NCBI GenBank assembly: GCA_027007025.1
Contig: JALTFL010000001.1
Coordinates: 248 to 64,247 of the forward strand
Length of the DNA: 64,000 nt
Reading direction: 5' to 3'
From: Nanobdellati archaeon
GTDB taxonomy: Archaea; Nanobdellota; Nanobdellia; CSSed11-243R1
In this document: positions 991-59,738 of the stretch, piece after piece
Layout of the letters: each line of letters opens with the position of its first letter
How positions within the stretch are numbered: the first letter of the stretch is position 1
Notes under the pieces: generated by a model
What the model was told of the DNA's origin: nothing
What the model saw: the letters and a program-made list of their open reading frames with translations, nothing else
Database searches by the model: none
Position numbers and translations under genes: made by a program

Positions 991-1894
991 CCAAGAAAAA
1001 TGCCTGTGTATTGTACTTGAACGGAACAACCCTTCCGCACTTCGAGAGAAACTGACTGTGTTTCTGGCCGAAAAATGAAACCATGCCTTTGTCTATGTAT
1101 TTGCCTATTTTCAATGGAAGCAGCTTGAATCCAAGCTCGTTGACTGCAAATTCCACCACTTCCTCATTTTCCTCAGGAGCGGTAGAACAGGTTGAGTAAA
1201 CCAAAATCCCGCCTTTTTTCAATAAGTTGTAAGCTGACTTGACAAGAGATTTCTGCAGTTTTTGAAACCTCGCATAGTCCTCCTTTTTTATCTTCTTTCT
1301 AAGCTCTGGATTTTTTGCCATGGTTCCGTCGGAGGAGCACGGCGCGTCAAGAAGGATTTTATCAAATTGTACGCCTATTTTTTGAAGGTTCCGCGAATCT
1401 GCGTTCAGGACAATCACATTTTGTGCGCCCATCCTTTCAATATTATTCTTCAATGAATCCAAGCGCTCTTTGTTTGAATCGACAGCCACAATCGTTCCCT
1501 TGTTGTTCATCAGCTGGGAAAGATGTGTTGTCTTTCCTCCCGGCGACGCCGCCATGTCCAAAACCAAATTATTCTGGCTCGGAGAAAGTTCTATTGGCGG
1601 AAGGGTTGACGCTGGGTCCAAGACATAAAAGTAGCCCATTAAGTATTCCACTGTTGTCGAGATGGGCTTAGGCTCCCTCATCAGGAAAAAAATGTAATTG
1701 CTCCACGGGACTTTTGAAAGAACATATCCTTTTGCTCTCAGCCTGCTCAAGCACCTGTTGACTCCCACTTTTGTGGTGTTTATCCTTATCGCCTTTGTAG
1801 GTTTCCTTGAATAAGCGGCAATTACTTTATTGAAATTGCTACCGAACAAATTCTTGAGCCGCTCTAGAAAGAAGTTTGGATAATTACTGCGCAT
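971..1894 (-). CDS. NOL1/NOP2/Sun-family RNA cytosine-C5 methyltransferase
   Basis: SAM motif LDMAASPGGKTTHL and catalytic DAPCSSDGT/TCS motifs. Confidence 0.85.
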   Translation of the reverse strand: MRSNYPNFFLERLKNLFGSNFNKVIAAYSRKPTKAIRINTTKVGVNRCLSRLRAKGYVLSKVPWSNYIFFLMREPKPISTTVEYLMGYFYVLDPASTLPPIELSPSQNNLVLDMAASPGGKTTHLSQLMNNKGTIVAVDSNKERLDSLKNNIERMGAQNVIVLNADSRNLQKIGVQFDKILLDAPCSSDGTMAKNPELRKKIKKEDYARFQKLQKSLVKSAYNLLKKGGILVYSTCSTAPEENEEVVEFAVNELGFKLLPLKIGKYIDKGMVSFFGQKHSQFLSKCGRVVPFKYNTQAFFLAKLVKV

Positions 1895-3131
1895 TTTTGA
1901 TACCCTTCTTAATTAGTGCCTTGACTATCCTCTTGACGTCGGTTTCCCTGCGCTTGACATCCGCCACCAGGTTTATCCCGTCAATGTAAACTTTTTTCCA
2001 CTTCGAAACAAAAATGTCGAAATGTTCCTTCGGCACCCATACCGGCGGACCGTAGTGCTTTTTCATTTTTGAAAGTTTAAGCGTGCTCAGCTCGAAGTAA
2101 ACCTTGACTGACTTCCCATCGCTTAAATAACCGTAATCATAAACATCTATATCTTCCCTCTCAATCGAAGAGTTAATACGCTTCAAAATTTTGTTCAGCT
2201 TGGCGAAGAAGATATCTTCCTTTTGGGAATCAATTTTTATTGTTTCAGCCACGAAAAGCGTTCCCCTCTTTTTGCTGCGCTCCTTCAAGTCGGCTATTGA
2301 AATTTTCTTCTTCCTGAACGCCGACAAAGACGGCTTCTTCCTGAACATCCTAAGAGCCAAAACCAAATTGGCAAAAGTTGTGTAGTTAAGCGAAGCGCTT
2401 GCGTTCCTGGACTTCATCACAGGGTCTATGAGCACTATTGGAGAGCTAATTTTCGGCTTTGACAACTGCCTTTTGGCGTCGTAAAAACTTTTATAGTGAT
2501 TTTCAATGTCAATGAAAACCGGTGGCTTCAGCTTGCAAGATTGATTAACCAAGTTCTTGAAAGAGCCGAAATGAATCATAAGCAGTTCGCTCACATATCC
2601 TGAAATTCCTGAAATGTGTGTTTCAGCCCCATAAACATTGTGCGCCTTCGCGAACATCTTGAACAGCCTTATCTCGTCCGCCAATTTCGGATTGTGGGAT
2701 ATTTTGTTCTTAATATAATTCACGTGGAAAATTGAAGCGTCCATGCTATTCTTCGCATCGCTTGGGGAGTTCACTTTCATAACAGGTATGATTTCAAGAT
2801 TGCACCCATTGAACTTAAGCTTGCAGTAATTTCTGCTTCCGTGCATAATCTCGCATCTGCCGAAAGCCCTTTTGACAACACCGACAAGCAGGTTTCCTAT
2901 CTCCTCATCCTTGTATCCTTTAAATCTCACAAACAAGTCAACGTCATAGTCTCCCTTTATCCACGTGCCCTTAGCGATGCTTCCGCCGACGAAAACTTCG
3001 GCGTTGATTCCCATCTTGGAAAGCTGAGAAGTCAAGAGAGATTTGGAAAGATTTATAATCGACTCCACTTTAGCTATCTCTGATTTTGATGGAGTTATCC
3101 TTTTCACTACCTTTTTGAGTATGGAATCCAT
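1884..3131 (-). CDS. cca: archaeal class I CCA-adding tRNA nucleotidyltransferase
   Basis: GSIAKGTWIKGDYDVDLFV nucleotidyltransferase motif, 415 aa as archaeal CCA enzymes. Confidence 0.85.
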   Translation of the reverse strand: MDSILKKVVKRITPSKSEIAKVESIINLSKSLLTSQLSKMGINAEVFVGGSIAKGTWIKGDYDVDLFVRFKGYKDEEIGNLLVGVVKRAFGRCEIMHGSRNYCKLKFNGCNLEIIPVMKVNSPSDAKNSMDASIFHVNYIKNKISHNPKLADEIRLFKMFAKAHNVYGAETHISGISGYVSELLMIHFGSFKNLVNQSCKLKPPVFIDIENHYKSFYDAKRQLSKPKISSPIVLIDPVMKSRNASASLNYTTFANLVLALRMFRKKPSLSAFRKKKISIADLKERSKKRGTLFVAETIKIDSQKEDIFFAKLNKILKRINSSIEREDIDVYDYGYLSDGKSVKVYFELSTLKLSKMKKHYGPPVWVPKEHFDIFVSKWKKVYIDGINLVADVKRRETDVKRIVKALIKKGIKNAQ

Positions 3132-3173: not shown

Positions 3174-5915
3174 ATGACGTTCGAAAACCTGCATCCAAAA
3201 ATACGGGAATGGCTTGACAAACAGGGATACTTAGAAAGCACGCTACCCCAGAGGATGGCAATTCCAAATATAACAAAAGGAAAGGACATACTAATAATTG
3301 CTCCTACCGGACACGGGAAGACTCTCGCAGCAGTCCTACCGATATTTGACATGCTCCTCAAAGACAAAGACAAAAAGGGGATTCGGTTTCTTTACATAAC
3401 TCCGCTGAAAAGCCTAAACAGGGACATACTTGACAGGATAATAAAACTCGCGAGTTATATCGGACTGGATGTCGATTTGAGGCACGGAGACACCACAAAA
3501 AAAGAGAGAGCGCAGCAGCTTGCGGACCCCGCGGATGTGCTCATATCAACTCCCGAAACCCTCCAGGCAATTTTGATTGGGAAAAGATTCAGGGAACTTC
3601 TCAGGAACGTTGAGTATGTTGTCGTTGACGAGATTCATGAACTTTGCGAAAACAAAAGAGGAACACAGCTTTCGCTTGCCCTAGAAAGACTTGAGAGTCT
3701 GCGAGGCAAAAAATTCCAGAGGATAGGACTGTCCGCAACGGTGGGAGACCCAAAAAAAATCGCCAAGTTCCTGACAAGCAATGAGTGTGAGATAATAGAC
3801 GCCCGTGCCGAAAAGAAATACGAATTCAATGTTGACTATCCTAGGCCGTCAGCGGAAGACTTCGCTCTCGCGAGGGAGATAAGCACCACCCCCAACGTGG
3901 CGTACTGCCTGAGAAAAATTGATAGGATGGTTGAGGAAAGCAGGTCGACAATTGTCTTTGTAAACACAAGAGAGACGGCGGAAGGAATAGGCGCGAAATT
4001 CAGGATGTGGAAACCTGACGCAAAAATCGCTGTACATCATTCATCCCTATCTAAAGGTGTGCGGCTCGATGTAGAGCAGAAATTCAAGAACGGGGAACTC
4101 AAGGCGATAATCTCGACCTCCTCACTGGAGCTTGGAATTGATGTCGGAAGCGTTGATTTAGTCATTCAATATGGCTCGCCCCGCCAGGCGACAAAACTAA
4201 TACAGCGCGTGGGAAGAAGCGGGCACGGAGTCGGGAGGATTTCAAAGGGAGAAATAATATGCAACTCAATCGACGACTACCTTGAAGCCCTTGCTGTTGT
4301 CAAAAAAATCGAAGACGGCTGGCTCGAGGAGCCGACAATTCCAGAAAAGCCGTACGACGTTCTCTCGCACCAGATTGTCGGAATTTGCATGGATTTCCAA
4401 AACGAGAGCAGGACTCCAACAAGAGATGAAATTTACAAAATAGTAACAAAATCATACCCATACAGGAAATTGTCAAGGGAAGAATTGGATTCCATGATTG
4501 AATTAATGAAAGACATCCACCTTATAGGCGAAAAGGATGAAGGGCTGTTCAGGACGAGAAAGGGTATGATGTACTATTTCGAAAACCTTTCTATGATTCC
4601 CCACGAAAGAGACTACAAGGTATTCGCATCTGACTTGAACAAGGTAATTGGAATTCTCCACCAGGGATTCGTAGCTGAGCACATAAAGCACGGGGCACAG
4701 TTCATCATGAAAGGCGAAACCTGGCGCGTTGTTGATGTAGAGGAAGACAAAGTAAATGTGGTGTCAAGCGAGAGCGGAGAGGGAGCAGTCCCGAGCTGGG
4801 AAGGAGAATTGATACCAGTTCCCATGGAAATAGCAAAACTCGCAGGAGATTTGCGAGAAAAATTCGCCCTCGGGGAGCTGAAAAAACAAAAGGATGATTT
4901 CGTGATTTCCACAAGCAAGAGGATGTTCATAGAATCCTATGAAGATTACACGATTGTCCATTCCTGTTTCGGAAGCAAGGTTAACCAGACACTCTCAAAG
5001 GCAATTGGTGCAATGATAACATCCAAAATTGGCTCCTCAATCGGCGTTCAGAACGACGCTTATAGATTGCTTTTCAAGATGCCGTTGATAGTCGGGCAGG
5101 AGCAGATAGTCGAAGCAATGAACGAGCTTCAGCCAGAATGGATTGACGATATAATCAAAAAGTCTATGAAGAACACCTCGATGTTCCTTTATCGGTTTTA
5201 CCACGTGGCGAAAAGATTTGGCATAGTCGACAAAAACGCGGAGTTCTCACAGTATATCCTATCGCGACTGACGACTGTCTACCAAAACACATTCGTGTAT
5301 GAAGAGGCAATGAAGGAACTGCTTAGAGAAAAGCTCGACACGAAAAGCGCGAGGGACATTCTGGAAAAAATAAAAAGCGGAAAAATTGAAGTTATAAACT
5401 CCCCGAATTATGAGATTTCCCCTCTTGGAGTCGAAGGGCTGAGATACAGGACTTCACTCATGAAACCAAAGGGAAAGATAAAAGAAATTTATAATCTTGT
5501 CAAGGAAAGGCTGAAAAACAGGAAGTTCTGGTTCGGATGCCTCTCGTGCGGGAATACAATCGGCGTTTATTCCGTGAAAAATGTTCCAGAGAATTTGAAG
5601 TGTCCAAAATGCGGAGCTAAGCTAATAGGGTTTGTGCCATATAAGGAAAGTGAAATAGCCAAGAAGATACTCAGAAAATATACCAACAAGCAGAAGTTAA
5701 ACGAGGAGGAAGAAAAATTCATAAAAAAATTCAGCGAAACCGCCGAGATGTTCATCAATTATGGGAAGTCTGCGGTTTTCGTGCTTGCGGGCTACGGAAT
5801 AGGGCCGAAAGTCGGTAGAAGAATTCTCAATAGGTATCATAAAAATGAAGATGACTTGGTTAAAGACATAATAAAAGAAGAAAAAAGATTCATAGAAACG
5901 AGAATTTTCTGGTAA
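3174..5915 (+). CDS. Lhr-like SF2 ATP-dependent helicase with C-terminal zinc ribbon
   Basis: Walker A TGHGKT, DEIHEL box, SAT motif, C-terminal CxxC..CxxC; 913 aa. Confidence 0.75.
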   Translation: MTFENLHPKIREWLDKQGYLESTLPQRMAIPNITKGKDILIIAPTGHGKTLAAVLPIFDMLLKDKDKKGIRFLYITPLKSLNRDILDRIIKLASYIGLDVDLRHGDTTKKERAQQLADPADVLISTPETLQAILIGKRFRELLRNVEYVVVDEIHELCENKRGTQLSLALERLESLRGKKFQRIGLSATVGDPKKIAKFLTSNECEIIDARAEKKYEFNVDYPRPSAEDFALAREISTTPNVAYCLRKIDRMVEESRSTIVFVNTRETAEGIGAKFRMWKPDAKIAVHHSSLSKGVRLDVEQKFKNGELKAIISTSSLELGIDVGSVDLVIQYGSPRQATKLIQRVGRSGHGVGRISKGEIICNSIDDYLEALAVVKKIEDGWLEEPTIPEKPYDVLSHQIVGICMDFQNESRTPTRDEIYKIVTKSYPYRKLSREELDSMIELMKDIHLIGEKDEGLFRTRKGMMYYFENLSMIPHERDYKVFASDLNKVIGILHQGFVAEHIKHGAQFIMKGETWRVVDVEEDKVNVVSSESGEGAVPSWEGELIPVPMEIAKLAGDLREKFALGELKKQKDDFVISTSKRMFIESYEDYTIVHSCFGSKVNQTLSKAIGAMITSKIGSSIGVQNDAYRLLFKMPLIVGQEQIVEAMNELQPEWIDDIIKKSMKNTSMFLYRFYHVAKRFGIVDKNAEFSQYILSRLTTVYQNTFVYEEAMKELLREKLDTKSARDILEKIKSGKIEVINSPNYEISPLGVEGLRYRTSLMKPKGKIKEIYNLVKERLKNRKFWFGCLSCGNTIGVYSVKNVPENLKCPKCGAKLIGFVPYKESEIAKKILRKYTNKQKLNEEEEKFIKKFSETAEMFINYGKSAVFVLAGYGIGPKVGRRILNRYHKNEDDLVKDIIKEEKRFIETRIFW

Positions 5916-5920
5916 CCCCC

Positions 5921-6030
5921 TTTTATGAAAGCACGTACGGAAAAATATAAGTTTTTTCTCTTAGTGCAGTTTCTCTTTTCTAAAGAGAAAGTGCTTTCTT
6001 TAGTGCAGCTTTCTTCTTAAGAAAGGTACT
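5921..6030. repeat. cluster of degenerate CTTTCTY..RAGAAAG hairpins plus GCACGTACGGAAAAA motif (terminator-like, same family as tRNA-intron core)
   Basis: between convergent helicase and TyrRS 3' ends; repeated tttctcttttctaaagagaaag / tttcttcttaagaaagg hairpins and T6 tract. Confidence 0.5.
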
Positions 6031-7045
6031 AGGAAAGGAAAGCGTCGCCAAGAGCTTCGAGTTCATCCTTGTGCTCCTCAAAATACTTTCTTATTTTGGA
6101 GAAGATGTTCACGAGCTCGTTTGTCAGCGCCGCCTTGATGTCCAGCGGGTGGAGTTCCTTATCAATGAACTTTCTCTCCAAGTCGTCATAAAACTCGAAT
6201 TTTATGTCGCCACCGAATTTTTCAGGGCGCTTTATCTCGACACTTCCCTTAAGCGGGAAGACAACATATTTGTAAAGTTGTAATATTGGATTGTCCTTCA
6301 CCTCACCTGCCGGACAATACGCTTTCTTGATTTTCTCACGAATTGCTTCCTCGGAATCATGAACTTTTATGCTCGTTTCGGGAATTGACGCGCTCATCTT
6401 TACGCCGGGACCTTTCAGGCTAACCATCAGCGGCATCATAACTTCCACCCTTGATTTGTATCCCACTTTTGGAAGGTACTCCCTTGCATACGCAAGAATG
6501 TGTCGCTGGTCTATGCCGCCAAGCTGTATGTCAACTTTTAGGTATTCCTCGTCGAGCGCCTGCATCACAGGGTAAATTAATTCAGAAACCTTTGGGTTTT
6601 TCATCCTAGTGACTTCTGACGCCGCCCTTGTCGCCCTCTTGACTGTCGTGAAAGATGAAAGCTTCAGGATGTCTGCCTGGTATTCCCTTGTGAGCTCGAA
6701 GTCAGAGCCAAAGACAAATTCCGGCTTTGTTTTCCACGGAATCGCTAGCTCTAGGCATTTTTTCACATACTCCCTTCTCTTTTGAATTTCGTCCCATGGG
6801 GTTTTCAAGTCATCAAGCGCGGCGTGTATGTCGGCAATCATTATTTTCGTCTTTATTCCTGCCTTGCTGAAATCGAAAATCTTGCCCATTGTTGCTAGAT
6901 AACCCATATGAACTGGTCCTGTTGGGGCAATTCCCCAATACGCAGTAGGATTGCTTTTTGTCTTCAGCAGTTCCCTCAGTTCATCTTCAGTGAGAATTTC
7001 CTTTGTGTTCTGCTTCGCCAATTCGAATTTATCCTTCCATTCCAT
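6029..7045 (-). CDS. tyrS: tyrosyl-tRNA synthetase (archaeal type)
   Basis: near-collinear with M. jannaschii TyrRS incl. KMSAS and C-terminal KRPEKFGGD; HIGH region reads HMGY. Confidence 0.9.
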   Translation of the reverse strand: MEWKDKFELAKQNTKEILTEDELRELLKTKSNPTAYWGIAPTGPVHMGYLATMGKIFDFSKAGIKTKIMIADIHAALDDLKTPWDEIQKRREYVKKCLELAIPWKTKPEFVFGSDFELTREYQADILKLSSFTTVKRATRAASEVTRMKNPKVSELIYPVMQALDEEYLKVDIQLGGIDQRHILAYAREYLPKVGYKSRVEVMMPLMVSLKGPGVKMSASIPETSIKVHDSEEAIREKIKKAYCPAGEVKDNPILQLYKYVVFPLKGSVEIKRPEKFGGDIKFEFYDDLERKFIDKELHPLDIKAALTNELVNIFSKIRKYFEEHKDELEALGDAFLS

Positions 7046-7073: not shown

Positions 7074-7763
7074 TTACTTTCCGAATCTCCTTTTCCTTTT
7101 CTTGAATTCATCCAAGTCCGCACGGAACATTTTGTAATTGTATTCCGGCCAAAGCTCGTCGCGGAATATCAGCTCCGCGTATGATGAATCCCATAACATA
7201 AAACCAGAAAGTCTCTTCTCACCACCAGTCCGTATTATCAAATCAAGAGGTGGAAGATTTTTCGTGTAAATGTTGTGCTTTATTGTTTTCTCGCTGGCTT
7301 TTTTAATATTAGAAGACAAGATATTATTTACAGCGCTGACAATTTCCTCGTGCCCGTCGTAGCACACCGCAAAGTTGAGGACCTTCCCGTTATGTCTTTT
7401 TGTTCTTTCGGAAATCTCATTCATTATTTTTCTCAACCCTTTGGGACACGAGTTCAAATCTCCTATGAAATTAACTCTTATTTTATCTCTATAAATCAAC
7501 TCGAAATCAACCATTTCCTTAAATCCCATTTCCAAAAGCTTGTAAATGAACTTCCGCTCCAGCAGATTCCTTTTCTTTAAGTTGTGAAGCGAAAAAGCAT
7601 ACAAAGTGAGATAATAAGGTTCATCCAGCTTTGCCCATTTAATCAGCAAGTTTTCAAGAGCTTTTTTGCCTTCAAGGTGCCCTTTAAATTTTGGAAAAAG
7701 TTTTTTCTTTGTCGCATACCTTCTGTTGCCATCCATTATTATTCCAACATGCATCTTGCTCAC
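7074..7763 (-). CDS. uppS: undecaprenyl/di-trans,poly-cis-prenyl diphosphate synthase
   Basis: HVGIIMDGNRRYA motif and full cis-prenyltransferase fold length. Confidence 0.9.
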   Translation of the reverse strand: MSKMHVGIIMDGNRRYATKKKLFPKFKGHLEGKKALENLLIKWAKLDEPYYLTLYAFSLHNLKKRNLLERKFIYKLLEMGFKEMVDFELIYRDKIRVNFIGDLNSCPKGLRKIMNEISERTKRHNGKVLNFAVCYDGHEEIVSAVNNILSSNIKKASEKTIKHNIYTKNLPPLDLIIRTGGEKRLSGFMLWDSSYAELIFRDELWPEYNYKMFRADLDEFKKRKRRFGK

Positions 7764-13894: not shown

Positions 13895-15964
13895 TTACTT
13901 TTTCTTACCCCAATTTTCTTTTGTCTTGCATTTCGGGTCAAGACACATTGTAAATGGGCGCTTTCCCTTTCTTATGACCTTAACGATTGGCGTATGGCAA
14001 TAAGGACAAATTTTACCAGTATTGATTATCTTAGCCCCGCCAGGAAGCGGATAAATATTGTTACATTTCGGATAATTAGTGCACCCCACAAACTTCTTTT
14101 TTGTTTTAGGAGAATATAAAATCTTTAACTGCCCAGTCTTGCACTTTGGACATGTCCCGAGCAAACTTTGTTCTTCCTGTGTGTCAAGAATCGCTTTTTC
14201 TATCTTCGGCCCGATTTTTTTCTCATTTTCCTTAAATTCTTTTGATATCTTTTTAATTACCTTAACTGCATCTTTTATGACTTTCTCGCGCTTTATTTTC
14301 CCTTTCTCTACTTTCTCCATTTCATTCTCGAATTCCCTAGTGAGGTTTTCCGATGTTAAGTCCGGAACATTTTCAGCAAGAGCTTTCCCGACAGCCATGC
14401 CCAACTTTGTAACTTTTATACTTTTGTCTTCAATATACCCCCTATCATAAAGGGTCTGTAATATTGACGCCCTGGTTGCCTTTGTGCCAAGATTAACCTT
14501 TTCGAGCTCCTTAACAATTGAACCTTGTGAGTATCTGCTTGGGGGTTGTGTCTCCTTTTCAACAAGCTCAATTTTTTTGACCTTAAAATTGTCACCCTTT
14601 TCAATTTTTGGAAATTCTGCCTCTTCAAGCTTTGAGTATGACCCATAATAATTCATCCAATTCTTCTCCAATGTCTTTGAGCCCGTCGCCACAAATTCTT
14701 CCTTGCCTATGTCAAAAACAACTTTTGTGGATTCTCGTATTGCAGGTTCTCCAAATACTGCGAGAAATCTTCTGACTATTAAATCATAAAGCTTTTTTTC
14801 ATCTGCACGCAGAGTGGAAATATCTGGCACTTCTTTTGTCGGGTAAATAGCAGGGTGCGCGGGGTCATCCTTTTTTCCTTCTTTCGGGACAAGTTCTTTT
14901 TTTGAAAGAAGTTCTTTAGCAATTTTCTCATATTTTTTAATCTTAGCAAGATTTTTCAAAATAGAGTTATAACCTATTTGTTTCGGAAGCTTCTGAGAGG
15001 ATGTTCTCGGGTATGAGATATATCCTTTTGTGTATAAATTTTGAGCAATGTCAGATGTTCGCTTTGGAGAATACCCAAAATACCTGTATGCCTCCGTTTG
15101 GAGAGATGTCAAGTCAAACGGATTAGGTGGGTCTTTTTTTGTTTTAGTTCTTTTCATCAGCGTGACTACAGCGTCTTCCCTGTCAGCATTTTCATAAGCA
15201 GAGTCAACTTCTCTCTTCTTCCAAAACTTTGTCTTTTTGTGATGAGCAACAACCATGGGTTTTGTTTTTATCTCCGCGTAAAGTTCCCAATATGGCTTCG
15301 GCTTGAACGCAGCGATTTCCTTTTCGCGCTTTATCAAAAAGTAAAGCATCGGTGTCTGGACTCTTCCGGCAGACAAAAGGTAATGATGAAGTTTTTTCCC
15401 ATGATGTTTTATTGACAATGTGAGTGCCCTTGAAACATTTACCCCCCAAAGAAAATCAAGAGAGTGCCTTGTGAGTCCAGATTCTACTCTCCCAAAATCG
15501 AGATGCTTTTGTATTTTCTCAAATGAATTGATTAAATCTTCTTTTGTCAATGTGGAAAATTTCATTCTCTTTGCGTCTTTCTTATTGAACAAAAATCTAA
15601 GAATGTTGTAGCCTATCACGCTTCCTTCCTCATCAAAATCTGTTGCAACTATAAAATCTTTGACACCCTTTGATGCTTCCTTGAAGGTATCATAATATTT
15701 TTTTGTGTACTCTGCTTTTTTATTCGCTACAAAAACCGGCACCCATTCCATATCAAATATTGGATATTCCCAACCTTTTTTTGTGTCTTTTAACGCGAAA
15801 ATATGACCAACTGCCGGGACTGCTACATAAGTGTGTTTTTTTATGTTAAACTCGTAATAATCTACTCCTTCACTTGACTTTTTTACTGCCAACTTTCCCT
15901 GTGAAAGAGCAGTAGCTATCTTTTTTGCCGCTGTTGGTTTTTCACATATGATTAAAGTTTTCAT
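13895..15964 (-). CDS. topA: DNA topoisomerase type IA with C-terminal zinc ribbons
   Basis: Toprim MKTLIICEKP, catalytic Tyr region, multiple C4 zinc fingers at C-terminus. Confidence 0.9.
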   Translation of the reverse strand: MKTLIICEKPTAAKKIATALSQGKLAVKKSSEGVDYYEFNIKKHTYVAVPAVGHIFALKDTKKGWEYPIFDMEWVPVFVANKKAEYTKKYYDTFKEASKGVKDFIVATDFDEEGSVIGYNILRFLFNKKDAKRMKFSTLTKEDLINSFEKIQKHLDFGRVESGLTRHSLDFLWGVNVSRALTLSIKHHGKKLHHYLLSAGRVQTPMLYFLIKREKEIAAFKPKPYWELYAEIKTKPMVVAHHKKTKFWKKREVDSAYENADREDAVVTLMKRTKTKKDPPNPFDLTSLQTEAYRYFGYSPKRTSDIAQNLYTKGYISYPRTSSQKLPKQIGYNSILKNLAKIKKYEKIAKELLSKKELVPKEGKKDDPAHPAIYPTKEVPDISTLRADEKKLYDLIVRRFLAVFGEPAIRESTKVVFDIGKEEFVATGSKTLEKNWMNYYGSYSKLEEAEFPKIEKGDNFKVKKIELVEKETQPPSRYSQGSIVKELEKVNLGTKATRASILQTLYDRGYIEDKSIKVTKLGMAVGKALAENVPDLTSENLTREFENEMEKVEKGKIKREKVIKDAVKVIKKISKEFKENEKKIGPKIEKAILDTQEEQSLLGTCPKCKTGQLKILYSPKTKKKFVGCTNYPKCNNIYPLPGGAKIINTGKICPYCHTPIVKVIRKGKRPFTMCLDPKCKTKENWGKKK

Positions 15965-16515
15965 TTGAACCTGAACTCCTTTATTACCCCATAAGTTGGA
16001 CCCTGCTTCGAGAGCTTGCTTTCAAAAAGTGACATCGATAATGCTGTAAATGAACCAAATTCTTTTTTGTAATTCTCTCTTATCTTGTCAAGGAACATCT
16101 CTTTATTTCTTGGATTCCTTATTCTTGCTAAAGTTACGTGTGGTGTGAACCTGCGCTCGTCTTTTGGTATGCCAAGCTCCTCAAGTTTAGCCTCAACTAT
16201 AGTATGTAATTGTCTCAACCCTTCTGATTGGGCGCCCGCCCACAATACTCTAACAAATTCTTCACTTGGAAAGATGCCAACTCCCTGAACATCTACCTCA
16301 AAAAGACGAGTGGATTTAACTAAATCATTCAACACATCCAAAATATCCTTTAATTTCTTATCAGAGATATTACCAAAAAATTTTATGTTAATATGAAAAT
16401 TTTCTTCTTCAACAAATTTCGCGTCAATATCTAATTTTTTAATTTCATTTTGGAAACGAGACAGCTTCTGCGAGATTTCATCAGGAATTTTAATTGCTAA
16501 AAAAACTCTTTTCAA
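15961..16515 (-). CDS. thpR: 2H phosphoesterase LigT/ThpR (RNA 2',3'-cyclic phosphodiesterase)
   Basis: two HxT/S motifs (HINIKF, HVTLAR); TTG start overlapping stop of upstream S8 gene (TTGA). Confidence 0.8.
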   Translation of the reverse strand: MKRVFLAIKIPDEISQKLSRFQNEIKKLDIDAKFVEEENFHINIKFFGNISDKKLKDILDVLNDLVKSTRLFEVDVQGVGIFPSEEFVRVLWAGAQSEGLRQLHTIVEAKLEELGIPKDERRFTPHVTLARIRNPRNKEMFLDKIRENYKKEFGSFTALSMSLFESKLSKQGPTYGVIKEFRFK

Positions 16516-25170: not shown

Positions 25171-25211
25171 AAAAATTCTCTTTGGTACAGCTTTCTCCCT
25201 TTAAGAGAAAG
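25171..25211 (-). terminator. hairpin CTTTCTCTTAAAGGGAGAAAG plus U6 downstream of proS
   Basis: minus-strand hairpin followed by UUUUUU; same CTTTCT/AGAAAG hairpin family. Confidence 0.45.
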
Positions 25212-25214
25212 ATG

Positions 25215-26714
25215 TTAATATTGACGAGCTACCCAGACAATTTCCTTTGCTGGCTTTCCGCAAACTGCGCATTTCTTGCCTTTTGCTGCCTTCCTTGAAG
25301 TTTCAACGCTCTCCTCGACGGACTTTTCGCCGTTGGCAAAAAGCTGAACTCCCCTAACCTTGATTGTTTCTTCCTTAAGCTTTTCAACGCATTTCTGTGA
25401 GTTGCAAAATGGGATTTCAACAAGATGGATTCCTGCATTTATCTCTTTCAAAATACCTTCAAAACTGTCTGCCTTCGCGCGCTTGAAGTTTTCCTCAGCC
25501 TTCGCGAACATAAGCTCGGTAATTTCCTCAAACTTCTTTTCAATGGTTTTTGAGCTCAAATCACTAATTGGAATGAATTCTTTGTTCCTGTCAAAGCGCC
25601 TTACCAAAACAACTTGGTTTTTCTCGACATCTTTAGGACCTATCTCAATCCTGATTGGAACACCCTTCATTTCCCACTCGTTGAATTTCCATCCCGGCGA
25701 ATAGTTGTCGCGCGAATCAATTTTTATCCTAAATTTTTTCAGCTTTGACTTAACGCTGTTGGCGAGCCTGAGCGCCGCTTCCTTTTCGTCGTCCTTGTAA
25801 TAAATTGGGACAATCACTATTTGTATCGGAGCTACTTTTGGCGGCAATACTAATCCGTTGTCGTCGCCGTGAATCGCCGCAAGCATCCCGAGTATTTTGC
25901 TTACACCCATTCCGAAAGAAGTCTGGTGGCAGAACTGCTTTTTGTTGTTCTTGTCAACATATGTAACGTCAAACGGCTTCGAGAAATTTAGCCCGAGATT
26001 GTGAGTCGTGCCTATCTGCGATATCCTGCCGTCAGGAAGTGGAGAATCATAAGCACATGTATATTCCGCCCCCGCGAACTTGTCCCACTCCGGGCGCTTG
26101 AAAAGCATGAAAGGTATTGCCAAATTGTCCTCGACAACTTTCTTGAAAATTGTCATGTCTTCCTTCACCTGCTTGTCTGCGTCATCGTTTGAAACCTGAG
26201 CGGTGTGAGACTCTATCCAAAAGAACTCTGCCGTCCTCAACAACGGGAAAATCGCATTTGTCCTTTCGGCGCGGAATGACGGGCGCGTTTCAAAAACCTT
26301 GAAAGGTAAGTCTTTGTAGGTTTGAATCCAATAGCTGAAGTAGGGATACATAACAGCTTCGCCTGTCGGGCGGAGAACTTTTGGTATTTCCAAATCCTTG
26401 CCGCCATGCCCCTTAGTTATCATAAAAACTTCCGGTGCGAAACCTGTCGCGTGCTCCTTCTCCTTTTCAAGAAGTGTGACCGGAATTGCGGTCGGAGTCC
26501 TGATTGGAGAATGTTCCTTTTCGATAAGCTCGCTTTCAAAAAGGCGTTCTACCTCCCTCAAAATTTTTGAGCCCCATGGGGGGTATCCATAAAATCCTCT
26601 GGAATTCTCCAGGCGCTTGTCCGCGAGCCCGCATTTCAAAACTACCTGTTCGTACCACTCGCTGAAATTTTTCTTGCCGACAGTAATTCCCTGTAACTTG
26701 TCCTTTGCCATCAA
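25215..26714 (-). CDS. proS: prolyl-tRNA synthetase (archaeal/eukaryotic type)
   Basis: class II core, anticodon-binding domain, C-terminal Zn motif CAVCGKP and terminal Tyr. Confidence 0.9.
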   Translation of the reverse strand: MMAKDKLQGITVGKKNFSEWYEQVVLKCGLADKRLENSRGFYGYPPWGSKILREVERLFESELIEKEHSPIRTPTAIPVTLLEKEKEHATGFAPEVFMITKGHGGKDLEIPKVLRPTGEAVMYPYFSYWIQTYKDLPFKVFETRPSFRAERTNAIFPLLRTAEFFWIESHTAQVSNDDADKQVKEDMTIFKKVVEDNLAIPFMLFKRPEWDKFAGAEYTCAYDSPLPDGRISQIGTTHNLGLNFSKPFDVTYVDKNNKKQFCHQTSFGMGVSKILGMLAAIHGDDNGLVLPPKVAPIQIVIVPIYYKDDEKEAALRLANSVKSKLKKFRIKIDSRDNYSPGWKFNEWEMKGVPIRIEIGPKDVEKNQVVLVRRFDRNKEFIPISDLSSKTIEKKFEEITELMFAKAEENFKRAKADSFEGILKEINAGIHLVEIPFCNSQKCVEKLKEETIKVRGVQLFANGEKSVEESVETSRKAAKGKKCAVCGKPAKEIVWVARQY

Positions 26715-30367: not shown

Positions 30368-30380
30368 AAGAAAAACTATT

Positions 30381-30412
30381 TCTTCCGTGCACGCTTCTTT
30401 CTAAGAAGGGTG
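30381..30412 (-). repeat. extragenic copy of conserved intron-core element, immediately 3' of tRNA, followed by U-tract
   Basis: minus strand reads CACCCTTCTTAGAAAGAAGCGTGCACGGAAGA then TTTTTCTTTT. Confidence 0.7.
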
Positions 30413-30414
30413 TA

Positions 30415-30574
30415 TGGCCCGGCGGAGATTTGAACTCCGGACCTCTGGTTTTCTGAGACCTGAGGTAACCCACAGGCGTCATATAAGACCAGCGCTCCAA
30501 CCAGGCTTCACCCAAACACCACTTCTTCCGTGCACGCTTCTTTTTAAGAAGGGTGCTTGTTAAGCTACCGGGCC
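30415..30574 (-). tRNA. tRNA with two introns; anticodon most likely UAU (Ile), assignment tentative
   Basis: acceptor GGCCCGG/CCGGGCC, D arm GCTT..GAGC, T arm CGGAG-TTCAAAT-CTCCG; D-loop intron 30508-30561 (54 nt, contains element) and anticodon-loop intron 30451-30481 (31 nt); mature 75 nt. Confidence 0.7.
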
Positions 30575-54025: not shown

Positions 54026-54523
54026 ATGGAAGAAATAGCAATTACAAAAGGACGTGCAAAATATTCGGGAATATTTGACTTTAGCGCATATTATCGTTTA
54101 TTATATGATTTGTTTAGAAGTATGGGATATGATGTCGAGGAGCAAAAGTATACCAACAAGACAAAGCCCGAAGGGGATGAAGTGGAGATTGAATGGAACT
54201 GTTACAAGAAGGTCGATGATTATTCATTATTCAGGATTTTCGCAAAGACATTAGTTTTGGGATTGCAGAAAAAGCAAGTAGTTGTTGAGGGCGTTCAGAC
54301 AACGAAAAATTATGGTACAATCGAGTTGGAAATAAAATGTTTCATACAGACTGATTACGAAAACAGATGGGAAACAAATCCAATGATGAAATTCCTTAAA
54401 GGTATATATGATACATATTTCTATCGTTCGACTTTCGAGACATGGAAGCAGAAGGTTGTCACAGATATGCACACCGTTGAGAATGAGGTTAAGGCATTTT
54501 TCAACATGCAGAGATTCCTTTAA
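54026..54523 (+). CDS. hypothetical protein
   Basis: 165 aa, no recognised motif. Confidence 0.3.
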   Translation: MEEIAITKGRAKYSGIFDFSAYYRLLYDLFRSMGYDVEEQKYTNKTKPEGDEVEIEWNCYKKVDDYSLFRIFAKTLVLGLQKKQVVVEGVQTTKNYGTIELEIKCFIQTDYENRWETNPMMKFLKGIYDTYFYRSTFETWKQKVVTDMHTVENEVKAFFNMQRFL

Positions 54524-56438: not shown

Positions 56439-56707
56439 GGGCGAGCTAGGTGGGCCGTTGGGCGTGGCCTGTCAATCCCAAACCGTCCTTAGGGGAGCCG
56501 AAGCCAGCTTGAGGGTTGTCACATTTTGAGTAAGCTCATGCCGTATCTGCGAAGCCTCGCCCCAAGGGATGTGTTATTCTGTGAACCGTGCGAGGTCCGG
56601 AAGGAAGCAGCACTAAGCGGAGTAGCATATGCTCTTGGGATACGGGGTGGAGAAAAGGTATGGGGACTGCTCCTGGTGCGGCTTCTCGATGGCTGGTGTG
56701 CTCGCCT
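56439..56707 (+). ncRNA. signal recognition particle RNA (7S/SRP RNA)
   Basis: terminal helix GGGCGAGC/GCTCGCCT, universally conserved helix-8 GGTCCGGAAGGAAGCAGC, GC-rich, TATA-like TTTTTAA ~25 nt upstream. Confidence 0.85.
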
Positions 56708-56712
56708 ATTAA

Positions 56713-56747
56713 CTTCTTTTTCCGTGCACGCTTTTTCCAAAAGGGTG
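56713..56747 (-). repeat. inverted copy of conserved intron-core element directly 3' of SRP RNA, followed by T6
   Basis: plus strand cttctttttccgtgcacgctttttccaaaagggtg is reverse complement of CACCC..GCGTGCACGG..AAG consensus. Confidence 0.7.
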
Positions 56748-56794
56748 CTAAGAAAGCTGCACCAAAAGAAACACTTTTTTACATATGTGAAAAC

Positions 56795-57349
56795 TTATTT
56801 AAGAAATTCTTTTATTTTTTCAAGCAAAAATGGAAACTTTGTGTACCCCGCTTTTTCGTTGAAGTGCCCAGCGCCGTGAATTATTATTGGTTTCACATTA
56901 AGTTTTTCCGCGAGTTCATAAGTTTTTTCTAAAGGAATATAAGGGTCGTTGTCAGAACCGATTACAAAAATGTTCTTGCAGTTTTCTTTTATTTTCTTCC
57001 AGTCAAACGGCTTTTCGAAAAAGGTTGAATTGATTTTATCGACTTCGGCGAAACCTAGTGCTCCGAGGAAACCCGCTATTAAAAAAGTAGCTTTGGTTTT
57101 ATACTTCTCTAAAAGATGCAATACAAATGAGGGTCCAATGCTGTGAGCAACAAAAATTGTATTCTCGTCAACATACTTTTCATAATCTTTGAAAACATTT
57201 AGCCAATTTTCTAAGGATTGCCCTTCTGGTGTCGGGAATTTTGGCACAAAGACTTTGCAACCCACCTTCTCGAGTTCTTTCTTCAGCCAAGGAAACCAAT
57301 TTTCCTGCGGATGCCCAAATGCGCCGTGTATGATGAAAACATTTGTCAT
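56795..57349 (-). CDS. alpha/beta-fold serine hydrolase (YdeN/RBBP9-like esterase)
   Basis: 184 aa, nucleophile elbow AHSIGP, HGAGH near C-terminus. Confidence 0.6.
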   Translation of the reverse strand: MTNVFIIHGAFGHPQENWFPWLKKELEKVGCKVFVPKFPTPEGQSLENWLNVFKDYEKYVDENTIFVAHSIGPSFVLHLLEKYKTKATFLIAGFLGALGFAEVDKINSTFFEKPFDWKKIKENCKNIFVIGSDNDPYIPLEKTYELAEKLNVKPIIIHGAGHFNEKAGYTKFPFLLEKIKEFLK

Positions 57350-57477
57350 AATCTCTCTAATAATCTTTGTAGTTATATCTTTATCCTTTTAGAGCTCTTT
57401 TTTTGGTAAATATTTTTCCTTGGAAAAACGTTTGCTGCGAAAGAAATATAAGGGGTTTATTCATTCTATTGGATTAT

Positions 57478-57725
57478 GCCGGGGTCGCCTAGCACCACCC
57501 TTTTCTTAAAAGAAAAGCGTGGACGGAAAAGAAGAGGGTGATGGGTTATCTGGTTATGGCGCTGGCCTGCTAGCACCCTTTCTTAGAAAGAAAGCGTGCA
57601 CGGAAAGAAATTTCCGTGGGTCGTAGTCAGCCAGTTTCCTTCGGGATCCGTGAGTTCGAAAGAGCCTTTCTCTTGCGAAGAGAAACCCTCGGGAAAGAGA
57701 AGCTCCGATTTTCTCACCCCCGGCG
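57478..57725 (+). tRNA. class II tRNA with three introns; anticodon most likely GCU (Ser)
   Basis: acceptor GCCGGGG/CCCCGGC, anticodon stem CTGGC/GCCAG loop CTGCTAG, 15-nt variable arm, T arm GTGAG-TTCGAAA-CTCAC; introns 57493-57549 (D-loop), ~57574-57629 (anticodon loop), 57662-57712 (T-loop); mature 84 nt; TATA-like AAATATAA ~30 nt upstream. Confidence 0.7.
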
Positions 57726-57770
57726 CTTTTTTTAGAAAAATTAATAATCAACATTTTCATTAATATTCAC

Positions 57771-58379
57771 ATGTACATAGAAGAAATAGGAAATAGAAAA
57801 TATTTTGCCGAAGTTATTGCGGATGACCTGCTTAAAAAATCTTTTCTAAAAATTTGGTGGAACAATAACGGCAAAGACATCTCGCTTGAACTTTACCCAG
57901 GGAATGGACTGGAGTATATTGTTGATAACTACACTGAAAGTGAAAGTATTAATGGTGTGTACAAACAAATGTTAAGCTCATTATCCGAAGTAGCAACAGG
58001 CATTAAAACAGGAATTGGGGTGTGGAAAGGCGGAAGGATAAGGTTTTCATACTGGGTTAATGAAGAAGGCATATTCTTTGTTGATGAAAATGAAGATGAA
58101 GTTGAGAAGCTGACGATTAAAGATATTTTGTCGAGACTAAATGGTGTGAAGCCGTTCAATTGGGAATTTGACACGTCGGGCATGAGTTTTATTGAGAAGT
58201 TTGCCTATGTGTTTAGTTCTCTTGACAAGAATCCGTGTCCGTTTATGAACAAGGATAAAATTTGTTTCGCTGATGGAGAACATTGCAATCACTACAGAAA
58301 ATTTGTGTACTATGGGCACACCTGTCCGAGGTACGAAACCGATTTTGAGCTTGAGAAAAAGCTTTTTGGTAAAGTTTAA
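57771..58379 (+). CDS. hypothetical protein with C-terminal Cys/His cluster
   Basis: 202 aa; CPFMNKDKICFADGEHCNHYRKFVYYGHTCPRY possible metal site. Confidence 0.3.
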   Translation: MYIEEIGNRKYFAEVIADDLLKKSFLKIWWNNNGKDISLELYPGNGLEYIVDNYTESESINGVYKQMLSSLSEVATGIKTGIGVWKGGRIRFSYWVNEEGIFFVDENEDEVEKLTIKDILSRLNGVKPFNWEFDTSGMSFIEKFAYVFSSLDKNPCPFMNKDKICFADGEHCNHYRKFVYYGHTCPRYETDFELEKKLFGKV

Positions 58380-58460
58380 TGATTCAGTGTTCCGAATTGT
58401 ATGTGGCGAAATATTTATAACTCTTTAGTCATTACTTTTTTTGAAATAGGGGTGATTGAT

Positions 58461-59084
58461 ATGGATTTTTTAGAAAAAGTAAATGGTATTGATAAATACA
58501 AATTATACACAGGTCCCCTTGAGGATGCCATTCACGCAATTAGAGCTGATGGGAGAACCCCAATGACTATTGAACAAATAGCACGCAAAAGACTTGAAGT
58601 TTATTCGAGTGGAGATGCCAATCATGATAAGGTTTGGTGGTGGAATGAATCACACTTTGGTGTGTATAACGGTGTTGCGTATTTTGAGGATAAGATTAAA
58701 GTTATAGATGGAGACACATTGCTTATGGCTGCTCTTGAGGGGAGAAAAAATGAATATTCCCTTATGATTAGCGAGGAATTGTATCATTCACTTGAAGGCG
58801 AGGAGTTCAAAAAATCAAAATCATACGATAGGAGAGACAATTCTTTCTTAAAAGCATTGTTCGGTGATGTGTTTGATGAGTATAAGAAAGTGGCAGAGGA
58901 TAGGTACATTGGTTTTAGAGGAGATAGATGTGTTTTGCCAACATTTAATGACTGCCTTAAATTTTGGAAGCCTAAAATACCTGAAGTGCGTGGACTAACA
59001 ATATCTGGATTGGTGGATGTATCTACTATTTATACGACATCTCCCCCAGGGGGGAATTTTGTTGGGGAAATAGCAAAAGAGTAA
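58461..59084 (+). CDS. hypothetical protein
   Basis: ATG 58461 preceded by GGGGTGA; 208 aa, no recognised motif. Confidence 0.3.
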   Translation: MDFLEKVNGIDKYKLYTGPLEDAIHAIRADGRTPMTIEQIARKRLEVYSSGDANHDKVWWWNESHFGVYNGVAYFEDKIKVIDGDTLLMAALEGRKNEYSLMISEELYHSLEGEEFKKSKSYDRRDNSFLKALFGDVFDEYKKVAEDRYIGFRGDRCVLPTFNDCLKFWKPKIPEVRGLTISGLVDVSTIYTTSPPGGNFVGEIAKE

Positions 59085-59134
59085 CAATCCCTTCCACAAA
59101 AGTTTAAAAATGATAATCTTACTTTTCTTTTCAT

Positions 59135-59345
59135 GGGCCCGTGGCCTAGTGGCTATGGCGTCCGCTTGACGAAACCCTTTCTTCCAAGAAAGCATTTACG
59201 GAAAGAAGGGTGTTCAAAATGCGGGAGATCCCCGGTTCGAAAGCAGCCTTTCTTTAGGAAAGAAAGCCTGCAGGGAAAGAAATTTCTTTTCCCTCAAGGC
59301 TTTTCTTTTTAAGAAAAGGCTTGCACGAAAGTCCGGGCGGGCCCA
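59135..59345 (+). tRNA. tRNA-Val (GAC) with two introns
   Basis: exons 59135-59172, 59221-59242, 59333-59345 give 73-nt cloverleaf; acceptor GGGCCCG/CGGGCCC, anticodon stem TCCGC/GCGGG loop TTGACGA, T arm CCCGG-TTCGAAA-CCGGG; introns 48 nt (anticodon loop) and 90 nt (T-loop). Confidence 0.8.
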
Positions 59346-59384
59346 TTTCTAAAGTTTTAAATATGTAACTCATTTTAATCTTAT

Positions 59385-59738
59385 ATGGCAAAGAAAAAGA
59401 CAACGAAAAGAAAAACAGCTAAAAGAGCACCAAAGAGAAAAGTCGTGGAATTGAAAAACAAAGCAGCTATGAATACAGTACACTTGGTTTTTGAGATTTT
59501 GGCGGCAGCAGGATTCGCGATTGGGTTAATTCCATTAGGATATCTGTTCTCTATGTGGTGGGTAATACCAATGACGTTGATATCGATGATTATCTCTGTG
59601 ATGTGGAGCAAAAAAACGTTGACTTTAGATGTTGTTACTTTTATAATGAGTCTATTGTCAATAATACCTATATTGGGTTTTGTTGCAAGGGTTATTGGTA
59701 TTATAACAGCTGCAGTAGCGGCTAAAGATTTAATTTAA
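59385..59738 (+). CDS. small membrane protein with Lys/Arg-rich N-terminus
   Basis: 117 aa; MAKKKTTKRKTAKRAPKRK then 3 TM helices. Confidence 0.35.
   Translation: MAKKKTTKRKTAKRAPKRKVVELKNKAAMNTVHLVFEILAAAGFAIGLIPLGYLFSMWWVIPMTLISMIISVMWSKKTLTLDVVTFIMSLLSIIPILGFVARVIGIITAAVAAKDLI

Follow-up and report, generated by a model that had tools for sequence, protein, structure and literature searches.

The 64-kb window analysed here (positions 248 to 64,247 of contig JALTFL010000001.1, assembly GCA_027007025.1, from a Nanobdellati archaeon) contains three tRNA genes whose introns share a short structured module, typified by CACCCTTTCTTAGAAAGAAAGCGTGCACGGAAAG at 57574-57607(+). This module is probably the core that has been conserved in a family of very short, protein-spliced bulge-helix-bulge (BHB) introns spread across the DPANN archaea. 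The core is a covarying hairpin whose 3' arm is repeated further downstream; its introns displayed BHB geometry, and their removal restored regular tRNAs. The structured core that unites these BHB introns is found outside genes as well. Its architecture and its existence as a family are well supported; that the RNA folds in two states, how the family spread and what the extragenic copies do are inferences.

Host tRNA genes and taxonomic spread

The window was searched for variants of the module by sequence, by a descriptor scan (pyrimidine arm, complementary purine arm and second complementary purine tract) and with a covariance model (CM) of the core, which later confirmed most descriptor matches. 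The CM was built from 17 cores and seeded with type-I cores of equal length, mixed-subtype MAFFT alignments being mis-registered. CACCCTTTCTTAGAAAGAAAGCGTGCACGGAAAG was matched exactly at 57574-57607(+), and 100 shuffles gave an expectation of zero for matches with up to three mismatches. The first-pass annotation had quoted this sequence together with seven variants, and every one was located: at 57491-57531(+) and 57663-57697(+) in the tRNA-Ser locus, at 59171-59205(+), 59245-59279(+) and 59297-59331(+) in the tRNA-Val locus, and at 30524-30557(-), plus a near-copy at 30381-30413(-), in the tRNA-Ile locus. The CM matched the core at nine places of the window, with E-values from 6e-17 down to 5e-5.

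Neither ARAGORN nor Rfam detected any tRNA in the raw 64-kb window. At the gathering threshold, the sole Rfam match over the whole window was the SRP RNA (56439-56707), and at E<=1 the region 57400-59400 gave two insignificant matches; no known RNA family in Rfam was thus matched by the module. Once the inserts were removed, ARAGORN (no-intron mode) drew clean cloverleaves for tRNA-Ser(GCU), tRNA-Val(GAC) and tRNA-Ile(UAU). Since three tRNAs were recovered in this way, with the module at three positions (D-loop, 37/38 and 59/60), the claim that introns of different tRNAs share one module holds. All three are multi-intron genes unseen by ARAGORN and Rfam, which constitutes an annotation blind spot.

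The tRNA-Ser(GCU) gene (57478-57725, +), recognised by ARAGORN only after in-silico excision, carries three module-bearing introns. The first (57493-57548, +) lies in the D-loop. Its core (CM match at 57491-57536, E=2e-8) has a 5' arm CCACCCTTTTCTT that pairs with the distal arm AAGAAGAGGGTG, the minimum free energy (MFE) fold displaying a 12-bp long-range helix, and the BHB scored H 4/4 and h' 10. The second intron (57573-57628, +) occupies the canonical 37/38 position, contains 57574-57607 and gave the top CM match of the window (66.5 bits). ARAGORN assigned a 56-nt intron there, and an H helix CTGC/GTAG can be read from the sequence; the MFE fold predicts a three-way junction composed of ACCC/GGGT, CTTTCTT/AAGAAAG and CACGGAAA-GAAA-TTTCCGTG. 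The third intron (57661-57711, +), at T-loop position 59/60, was found by the descriptor scan and displayed a diverged core (TTTCTCTT/AAGAGAAA, second tract GGAAAGAGAAG) with a weak CM match (E=0.26) and BHB scores of H 3/4, h 5 and h' 4.

Two module-bearing introns interrupt the tRNA-Val(GAC) gene (59135-59345, +). That at 37/38 (59172-59219, +) was assigned by ARAGORN as a 48-nt intron; its core lies at 59168-59211 (CM E=1e-9) and its H helix reads TTGA/TCAA in the sequence. The one at 59/60 (59242-59331, +; CM E=1.5e-13 and 5e-7; BHB H 4/4, h 5) is composed of three cores, namely sense 59239-59285, inverted 59281-59327(-) and sense 59297-59331, which together fold into a single long hairpin with an MFE of -50 kcal/mol. 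Sense and inverted modules forming a long, nearly perfect hairpin were also observed in introns of two other loci (L057 3815-3895 and L061 7394-7474).

The tRNA-Ile(UAU) gene (30415-30574, -) gave a cloverleaf after removal of both its introns. Its D-loop intron (30506-30561, -; CM E=2e-9), for which orthologs were found in three other genomes, has the core GCAC-C-CTTCTT aaa AAGAAG-C-GTGC ACGG AAGAAG TGGTG, and its canonical 37/38 intron (30451-30481, -) is devoid of the module. None of the three pre-tRNAs contains a C box (RUGAUGA) or a D box (CUGA) of a C/D-box guide RNA. A further candidate tRNA at about 12008(-) turned out to be coding sequence.

The module extends far beyond this genome. 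An exact-pattern scan of 185,579 species-representative genomes yielded 65 loci, 43 of which were classed as archaeal from the names in their records and belong mostly to metagenome-assembled genomes (MAGs) of DPANN members (Nanoarchaeota, Woesearchaeota, Aenigmatarchaeota, Iainarchaeum, Micrarchaeota, Undinarchaeota, Parvarchaeota and Altiarchaeota). About eight named DPANN lineages carry the module, and several genomes contain many matches. The remaining 22 loci, nearly all bacterial, displayed single matches resembling coding sequence, and no Thermoproteales name occurred among the 65. The CM search for further copies, proposed when the module was first described, gave 131 matches in 382 kb made up of DPANN loci, themselves picked for containing a match, and the window. 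It gave none in the 22 non-DPANN loci (149 kb), each of which holds an exact pattern match.

That the resemblance results from chance or composition, i.e. from purine and pyrimidine tracts in an AT-rich genome, is hardly credible. The tracts are indeed of low complexity, and the loose descriptor matched a few coding sites such as 14910 and 34394 (the latter, also matched by the CM, lies inside an aminoacyl-tRNA synthetase ORF and was judged a chance match). Yet shuffle expectations ranged from 0 to 0.05, CM E-values were at best of the order of 1e-17, and the outer helix of the core covaries (see below). Since strong CM matches occurred in the window and none in the control loci, AG/CT low complexity, initially considered as a trivial explanation, does not account for the copies.

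Architecture of the core

The 5' arm of the core is composed of 3-4 variable nucleotides (the prefix, usually GCAC), a C and a pyrimidine tract such as CTTTCTT. After a loop of 2-5 nt comes a proximal 3' arm (AAGAAAG, C, GTGC) which pairs with the 5' arm in an extended hairpin across a 1x1 mismatch, at which 81 of 116 copies have C.C. Next, a linker (ACC or ACGG, conserved as AC(G)G) separates the proximal arm from a second, distal version of it (AAAGAA..., in many cases with G-GTG(C) after it), which pairs with the same 5' arm free of mismatch. The prefix pairs with the nucleotides following the first purine tract, and this outer helix was encountered as GCAC/GTGC, ACAC/GTGT, CAAC/GTTG, GAAC/GTTC, CCAG/CTGG, CAGC/GCTG, CAAG/CTTG and GCAG/CTGC. 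In the model-derived alignment, 97.6% of cells were paired, compared with 86.9% after shuffling and 37-60% after sliding; double changes occurred in 8 of 11 pairs, and compensatory cells numbered 120 for 23.5 expected.

These observations modify the architecture first given for the module, i.e. a CTTTCTT hairpin, a short palindrome and a terminal AAAG. The hairpin was confirmed. The palindrome was not: the CGTGCACG-like segment covaries with the prefix and is palindromic only when the prefix is GCAC, so that it corresponds to the 3' strand of the outer helix plus the conserved linker. A role for CGTGCACG as a dimerisation or restriction-type palindrome was likewise rejected, the segment tracking the prefix (GTGT-ACGG, GTTG-ACGG, GTTC-ACGG, GCTG-GCGG) with loss of palindromy. 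As for AAAG, it is the start of the second copy of the 3' arm.

The second purine tract repeats the first directly, and G plus the complement of the prefix often comes after it; the 3' arm is thus present twice. The base facing the C of the 5' arm is C in the proximal copy and, in 25 of 32 cases, G in the distal one. An exact complement of 5'-arm nucleotides 2-6 was found downstream in 45% of validated introns, against 8% for permuted partners. A purine-motif triple helix was rejected as an alternative use of the second tract: the asymmetric type-II tract CTTTTT goes with AAAAAG in both purine tracts, which identifies the second as a direct repeat and Watson-Crick complement of the 5' arm. Such a triple helix would also be geometrically poor, with a linker of 3-4 nt beyond a 4-bp helix.

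MFE folds were calculated for 53 introns with 12-nt flanks. The 5' arm was predicted to pair with the distal repeat in 33 of them and with the proximal copy alone in 11, and eight gave a three-way junction, the class to which the 57573-57628 intron belongs. For a nascent transcript ending just past the proximal arm, the hairpin was the predicted fold in 101 of 116 copies. Tandem G.A pairs of a K-turn/L7Ae site were not seen on inspection by eye.

One subfamily (L088 2743, L088 1864, L090 4287, L103 7480, L063 1823 and L060 1588) has its apical pyrimidine/purine stem swapped for a GC-rich mini-hairpin, e.g. CCGC-TTCG-GCGC. Its members retain the CTTT/AAAG pairs at the base of the stem and, beyond these, the C.C mismatch, outer helix and ACGGAAAG.

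Splice junctions and copies outside introns

A strict BHB search (contiguous h and h' of at least 2 bp) missed true junctions, and the criteria were relaxed. Automatic intron calls are approximate, a few being false (trailer copies forced into introns) and several obvious tRNA contexts being missed. In other genomes, 39 module clusters resolved to tRNAs, with junctions at about positions 13-20, 36-44 and 52-75. The 5' splice site fell at most 2 nt from the first base of the core in 60 of 65 called introns, the median intron length being 51 nt, so that an intron is essentially the core plus about 6-15 nt; the family ranges from about 37 to 90 nt. The helix between the 5' arm and the distal arm spans from intron nucleotide 2 to 6 nt before the 3' splice site, just where helix h' lies in the hBHBh' arrangement. 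BHB scores of 37/38 and 59/60 introns were H 4/4, h 5-7 and h' 4-13. T-loop introns displayed the full hBHBh' (H 4/4, h 5), with exon TTCG pairing with intron TGAA or CGAA, two bulges of 3 nt and the T-stem acting as helix h. The coincidence of module copies with BHB-flanked inserts, which the first-pass annotation had suggested checking, was therefore observed for tRNA inserts (BHB or relaxed BHB).

These features suggest how splicing might proceed. In the introns, the 5' arm begins with the nucleotide(s) that mark the 5' splice site, and the 5'-arm/distal-arm helix, or its three-way-junction variant, corresponds to h' abutting both 3-nt bulges. About six further intron nucleotides (four complementary to the upstream exon plus two) complete the BHB, at which the splicing endonuclease would cut out the inserts before the exons are ligated. 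During transcription the proximal hairpin would form first and then be displaced by the mismatch-free distal arm, giving a two-state fold. The family may have grown by DNA-level duplication into loops with conserved flanks followed by vertical inheritance, and copies at gene 3' ends may act as terminator-associated or stabilising hairpins. In its most extended form, this scheme would make the core a portable splicing cassette for BHB intron gain, with its own splice-flanking helix, a 4-nt exon complementarity, a two-state RNA and a DPANN-wide factor also active at RNA 3' ends. Such a cassette is tentative and, in our opinion, more doubtful than probable; if true, it provides a concrete, testable mechanism for archaeal intron gain. 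The sequential folding is reminiscent of metastable 5' hairpins (e.g. in hok mRNA), in which a first hairpin is replaced by a stabler, later pairing of the same strand. This likeness is by analogy, the putative switch being deduced here from complementarity and predicted energies. A Pfam scan of 39 ORFs of the window (64 kb of the genome) revealed neither EndA nor RtcB.

Several copies of the window lie outside introns. That at 30376-30413(-), previously read as belonging to a tRNA intron, sits in the tRNA-Ile 3' trailer, 2 nt past the discriminator base and directly before TTTTT (it is followed by TTTTTCTTTT; CM E=4.6e-9). A related tRNA in locus L104 also has a trailer copy, ahead of T7. Two tandem cores (5950-6033, -; CM E=5e-5) begin at the TAG stop of a Tyr/Trp-tRNA synthetase ORF (6029-7045, -); they are followed by a T-rich run and located between convergent genes. 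A diverged core (25172-25214, -; weak CM E=0.07) comes directly after the TAA stop of a ProRS ORF (25215-26714, -) and precedes TTTTTT. Finally, an overlapping pair on both strands (56712-56774; CM E=1.2e-8 and 0.22, the latter weak) lies between convergent units: the 56712-56752(-) copy is 3' of a hydrolase ORF (56795-57349, -), and the degenerate 56722-56774(+) copy is found just past the SRP RNA, ahead of TTTTTT. Over 56439-56800, the SRP RNA region thus displays a bidirectional module pair shared with the convergent hydrolase gene, with T-runs on both strands. All host ORFs were identified with Pfam.

In other genomes, stop-codon-adjoining copies were recorded in loci L052, L064, L077, L080 and L091. 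In three MAGs, six copies altogether occurred within 16S rRNA; the 16S genes that hold modules measure 1590-1741 nt, i.e. 110-260 nt more than the 1478-position model, and the inserts (about 45-60 nt, without ORF) bear the same core as the tRNA introns. A module copy was also seen in the 16S leader, about 130 nt upstream of 16S (L088 5539-5581 and L090 5436-5482), flanked by a BHB-like TGAC/GTCA helix. The intercistronic copy of L064 (about 4021-4063, -) is peculiar in that its outer helix overlaps the TGA stop of the upstream ORF and its second purine tract leads straight into the GGAGG-N6-ATG of the next gene, with no T-run. This arrangement could couple translation of the two flanking genes.

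Gene-end copies raise the question of whether the element serves above all to terminate transcription or to form hairpins at 3' ends, its presence in introns being secondary. Five gene or RNA ends of the window (Tyr/TrpRS, ProRS, hydrolase, SRP RNA and tRNA-Ile) are adjoined by copies, with T5-T6 after four of them. Outside stable-RNA genes, at least seven copies begin 0-6 nt past the stop of a same-strand ORF of at least 90 aa, one in the window and at least six in other genomes, where several gene-end copies precede T5-T9. However, at least 77 of 116 copies lie within genes for tRNA or rRNA, in which a terminator would be lethal. Oligo-T directly follows the hairpin in several extragenic copies but not in the intronic majority nor in some intercistronic copies, which run into the next GGAGG, as in L064. 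Moreover, archaeal termination is known to depend on oligo-T and not on a hairpin. We regard a primary terminator function as unlikely.

Another reading takes the core as the binding site of a DPANN-wide RNA-binding protein (involved in processing, chaperoning or decay) that marks RNA for removal or ending. The stem and the ACGGAAAG linker are conserved in sequence although any complementary stem would fold, the C.C mismatch is kept even in copies without a competing distal arm, and one core is used in introns, the 16S leader, tRNA trailers and mRNA 3' ends. On the other hand, the window genes (39 ORFs, Pfam) suggest no candidate protein, and the subfamily with a GC-rich, UUCG-type mini-hairpin in place of the apical stem implies that much of the stem sequence is dispensable. 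We consider this reading rather unlikely as an overall explanation.

Our preferred reading, an intron core serving BHB splicing across DPANN, also has to face several observations that weigh against it. Extragenic copies, which have no splice sites, keep the second purine tract and the C.C mismatch; the core is therefore under some constraint beyond intron architecture. CTTTCTT/AAGAAAG is nearly invariant across phyla and loops vary, which hints at a sequence-specific partner. The distal-arm complement extends into the prefix in just about half of the introns, and D-loop introns display only a relaxed BHB (HBh' type) with h = 0-2. The alignment used to count covariation had been fitted to the model structure, so that the count leans towards it (the same outer-helix pairs are also visible in raw sequence listings), and copy densities in loci picked for containing a match are not genome-wide estimates. 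Lastly, splicing, circularisation and folding order are proposed from sequence and predicted energies.

Inheritance, mobility and relation to known systems

The tRNA-Ile D-loop intron is orthologous in four genomes and displays GCAC/GTGC/GGTG in three of them, the fourth having CAAC/GTTG/GGGTTG. The prefix thus changed in concert with both 3' arms, proximal and distal, and the apical stem was remodelled too. Such three-way compensation points to long vertical inheritance under selection and not to recent hopping. Across phyla, stems are almost invariant and loops and 3' tails differ, which indicates old, vertically inherited elements under purifying selection. At the same time, many tRNAs in many DPANN genomes carry this one core, be it in the D-loop, the anticodon loop or the T-loop, which makes common descent by duplication far more likely than independent origin. 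The initial view of a mobile or duplicative intron family is therefore upheld as regards the core shared by three positions of non-orthologous tRNAs. It is not upheld as regards intron-specificity, and no sign of current mobility was found. The reading as a duplicative intron family is thus partly supported; the pattern indicates a family that is old, vertically inherited, under selection and not specific to introns.

Mobility was considered in the form of a selfish dispersed palindrome of the REP/MITE type, moved as folded single-stranded DNA by some transposase, with copies surviving in RNA genes where they can be spliced and being neutral at gene ends. The element is an imperfect palindrome of about 30 nt whose mismatch is conserved, and a genome holds many copies of it, in both orientations and in tandem and inverted pairs; it is present in intergenic 3' regions, where the window holds it repeatedly (5950-6033, 25172-25214, 30376-30413 and 56712-56774). 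In addition, direct repeats of about 20 nt or longer of a tRNA 3' end flank copies in L105, L072, L059 and L069. Against this, copies inside host RNAs are strongly sense-biased, orthologous introns are kept across genomes with compensatory change, and nearly identical stems with differing loops across phyla denote purifying selection instead of recent spread. The 39 window ORFs scanned code for ordinary information-processing functions; Pfam revealed in them no domain of a transposase (RAYT/Y1 included), a reverse transcriptase or a homing endonuclease, nor any other endonuclease or a ligase. A first scan of 2.9 million viral contigs gave 39 matches, all resembling coding noise and lacking the prefix, and a stricter scan of these contigs gave none; viral or plasmid origin was accordingly rejected. 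Altogether, a selfish element appears improbable.

The four loci just mentioned share a particular organisation (L105 at about 6100-6260, L072 at about 5950-6100, L059 at about 4640-4760 and L069 at about 7150-7400): an intact tRNA gene has an antisense module immediately beyond its 3' end, and after this module about 20 nt of the T-loop-to-3'-end segment of that tRNA recur as a partial copy. In L069 a longer unit is tandemly repeated. These repeats look like a target duplication, an integration scar or the product of unequal recombination. On the same Woesearchaeota contig, a masked run of N interrupts a tRNA gene beside the repeated module unit (L069, about 7330-7430).

As in the multi-intron tRNAs of Thermoproteales, ARMAN/Micrarchaeota and other DPANN members, the introns described here are short, occur in the D-loop, anticodon loop and T-loop (59/60), have a strict or relaxed BHB and render their host tRNAs invisible to standard finders. 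They differ by a single core, defined in sequence and structure over about eight DPANN lineages, by its duplicated 3' arm and by extra-intron copies. Kaneta et al. 2018 (PMC5829648) had linked DPANN endonucleases with an L3 loop to a higher degree of disruption of tRNA genes and to tRNA sets that are incomplete.

In Thermoproteales, related introns at differing tRNA positions were read as 'intron transposition' (duplication or transposition), by a mechanism given as unknown in the account of PMC4090602 on Fujishima et al. 2010. The transposed clusters of that account also consist of nearly identical introns at different positions of non-orthologous tRNAs. Judging from their description there, they are set apart by belonging to a different superphylum and by conservation within one order, whereas the present core spans phyla, is found in 16S rRNA and at gene 3' ends too, and has a defined covarying hairpin with an alternative helix. 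Since that Thermoproteales report, the origin and movement of archaeal BHB introns have been an open question. A defined, alignable and structured unit occurring in several contexts should therefore allow gain, loss, selection and a trans-acting partner to be studied by comparative genomics and biochemistry.

Small BHB introns were reported in Thermoproteales 16S (PMC4496867), and BHB introns beside group I introns in DPANN rRNA (PMC6125680). Like these archaeal rRNA introns, the present inserts lie within 16S genes, DPANN included; their sharing of the tRNA-intron core is a link not found in the literature searched. Full-text literature searches and Rfam 15 gave no description of a cross-phylum structured intron core, of a duplicated arm or of a presence in rRNA and at gene 3' ends. 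Bacterial REP/BIME elements are similar: they are palindromes, likewise imperfect and about 35 nt long, which often form tandem or inverted pairs and lie just past genes and between convergent genes. Bacterial REPs are, however, species-specific, tied to RAYT transposases and not known as introns of stable RNA, and no RAYT-like gene was seen in the window.

The model of the core can be used to look for 'missing' multi-intron tRNA genes. A 2026 preprint on 208 complete Nanobdellota genomes reported 'missing' tRNA-Val and tRNA-Trp and considered split genes; multi-intron genes like the tRNA-Val described here may explain these absences.

The right-hand 9.9 kb of the window are identical to contig WALP01000027.1 of assembly GCA_015522785.1. 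This contig begins at window position 54138, inside an ORF (54026-54523) that is intact in the window, which is thus a more contiguous version of the same genome. The window also codes for a LigT-type 2'-5' RNA ligase/phosphoesterase (15964-16515, -) and a CCA-adding enzyme (1887-3131, -). Finally, the anticodon of its tRNA-Ile is UAU and not CAU. Among archaea this anticodon is uncommon for tRNA-Ile, known cases being Nanoarchaeum and Korarchaeum, both without the agmatidine enzyme TiaS.

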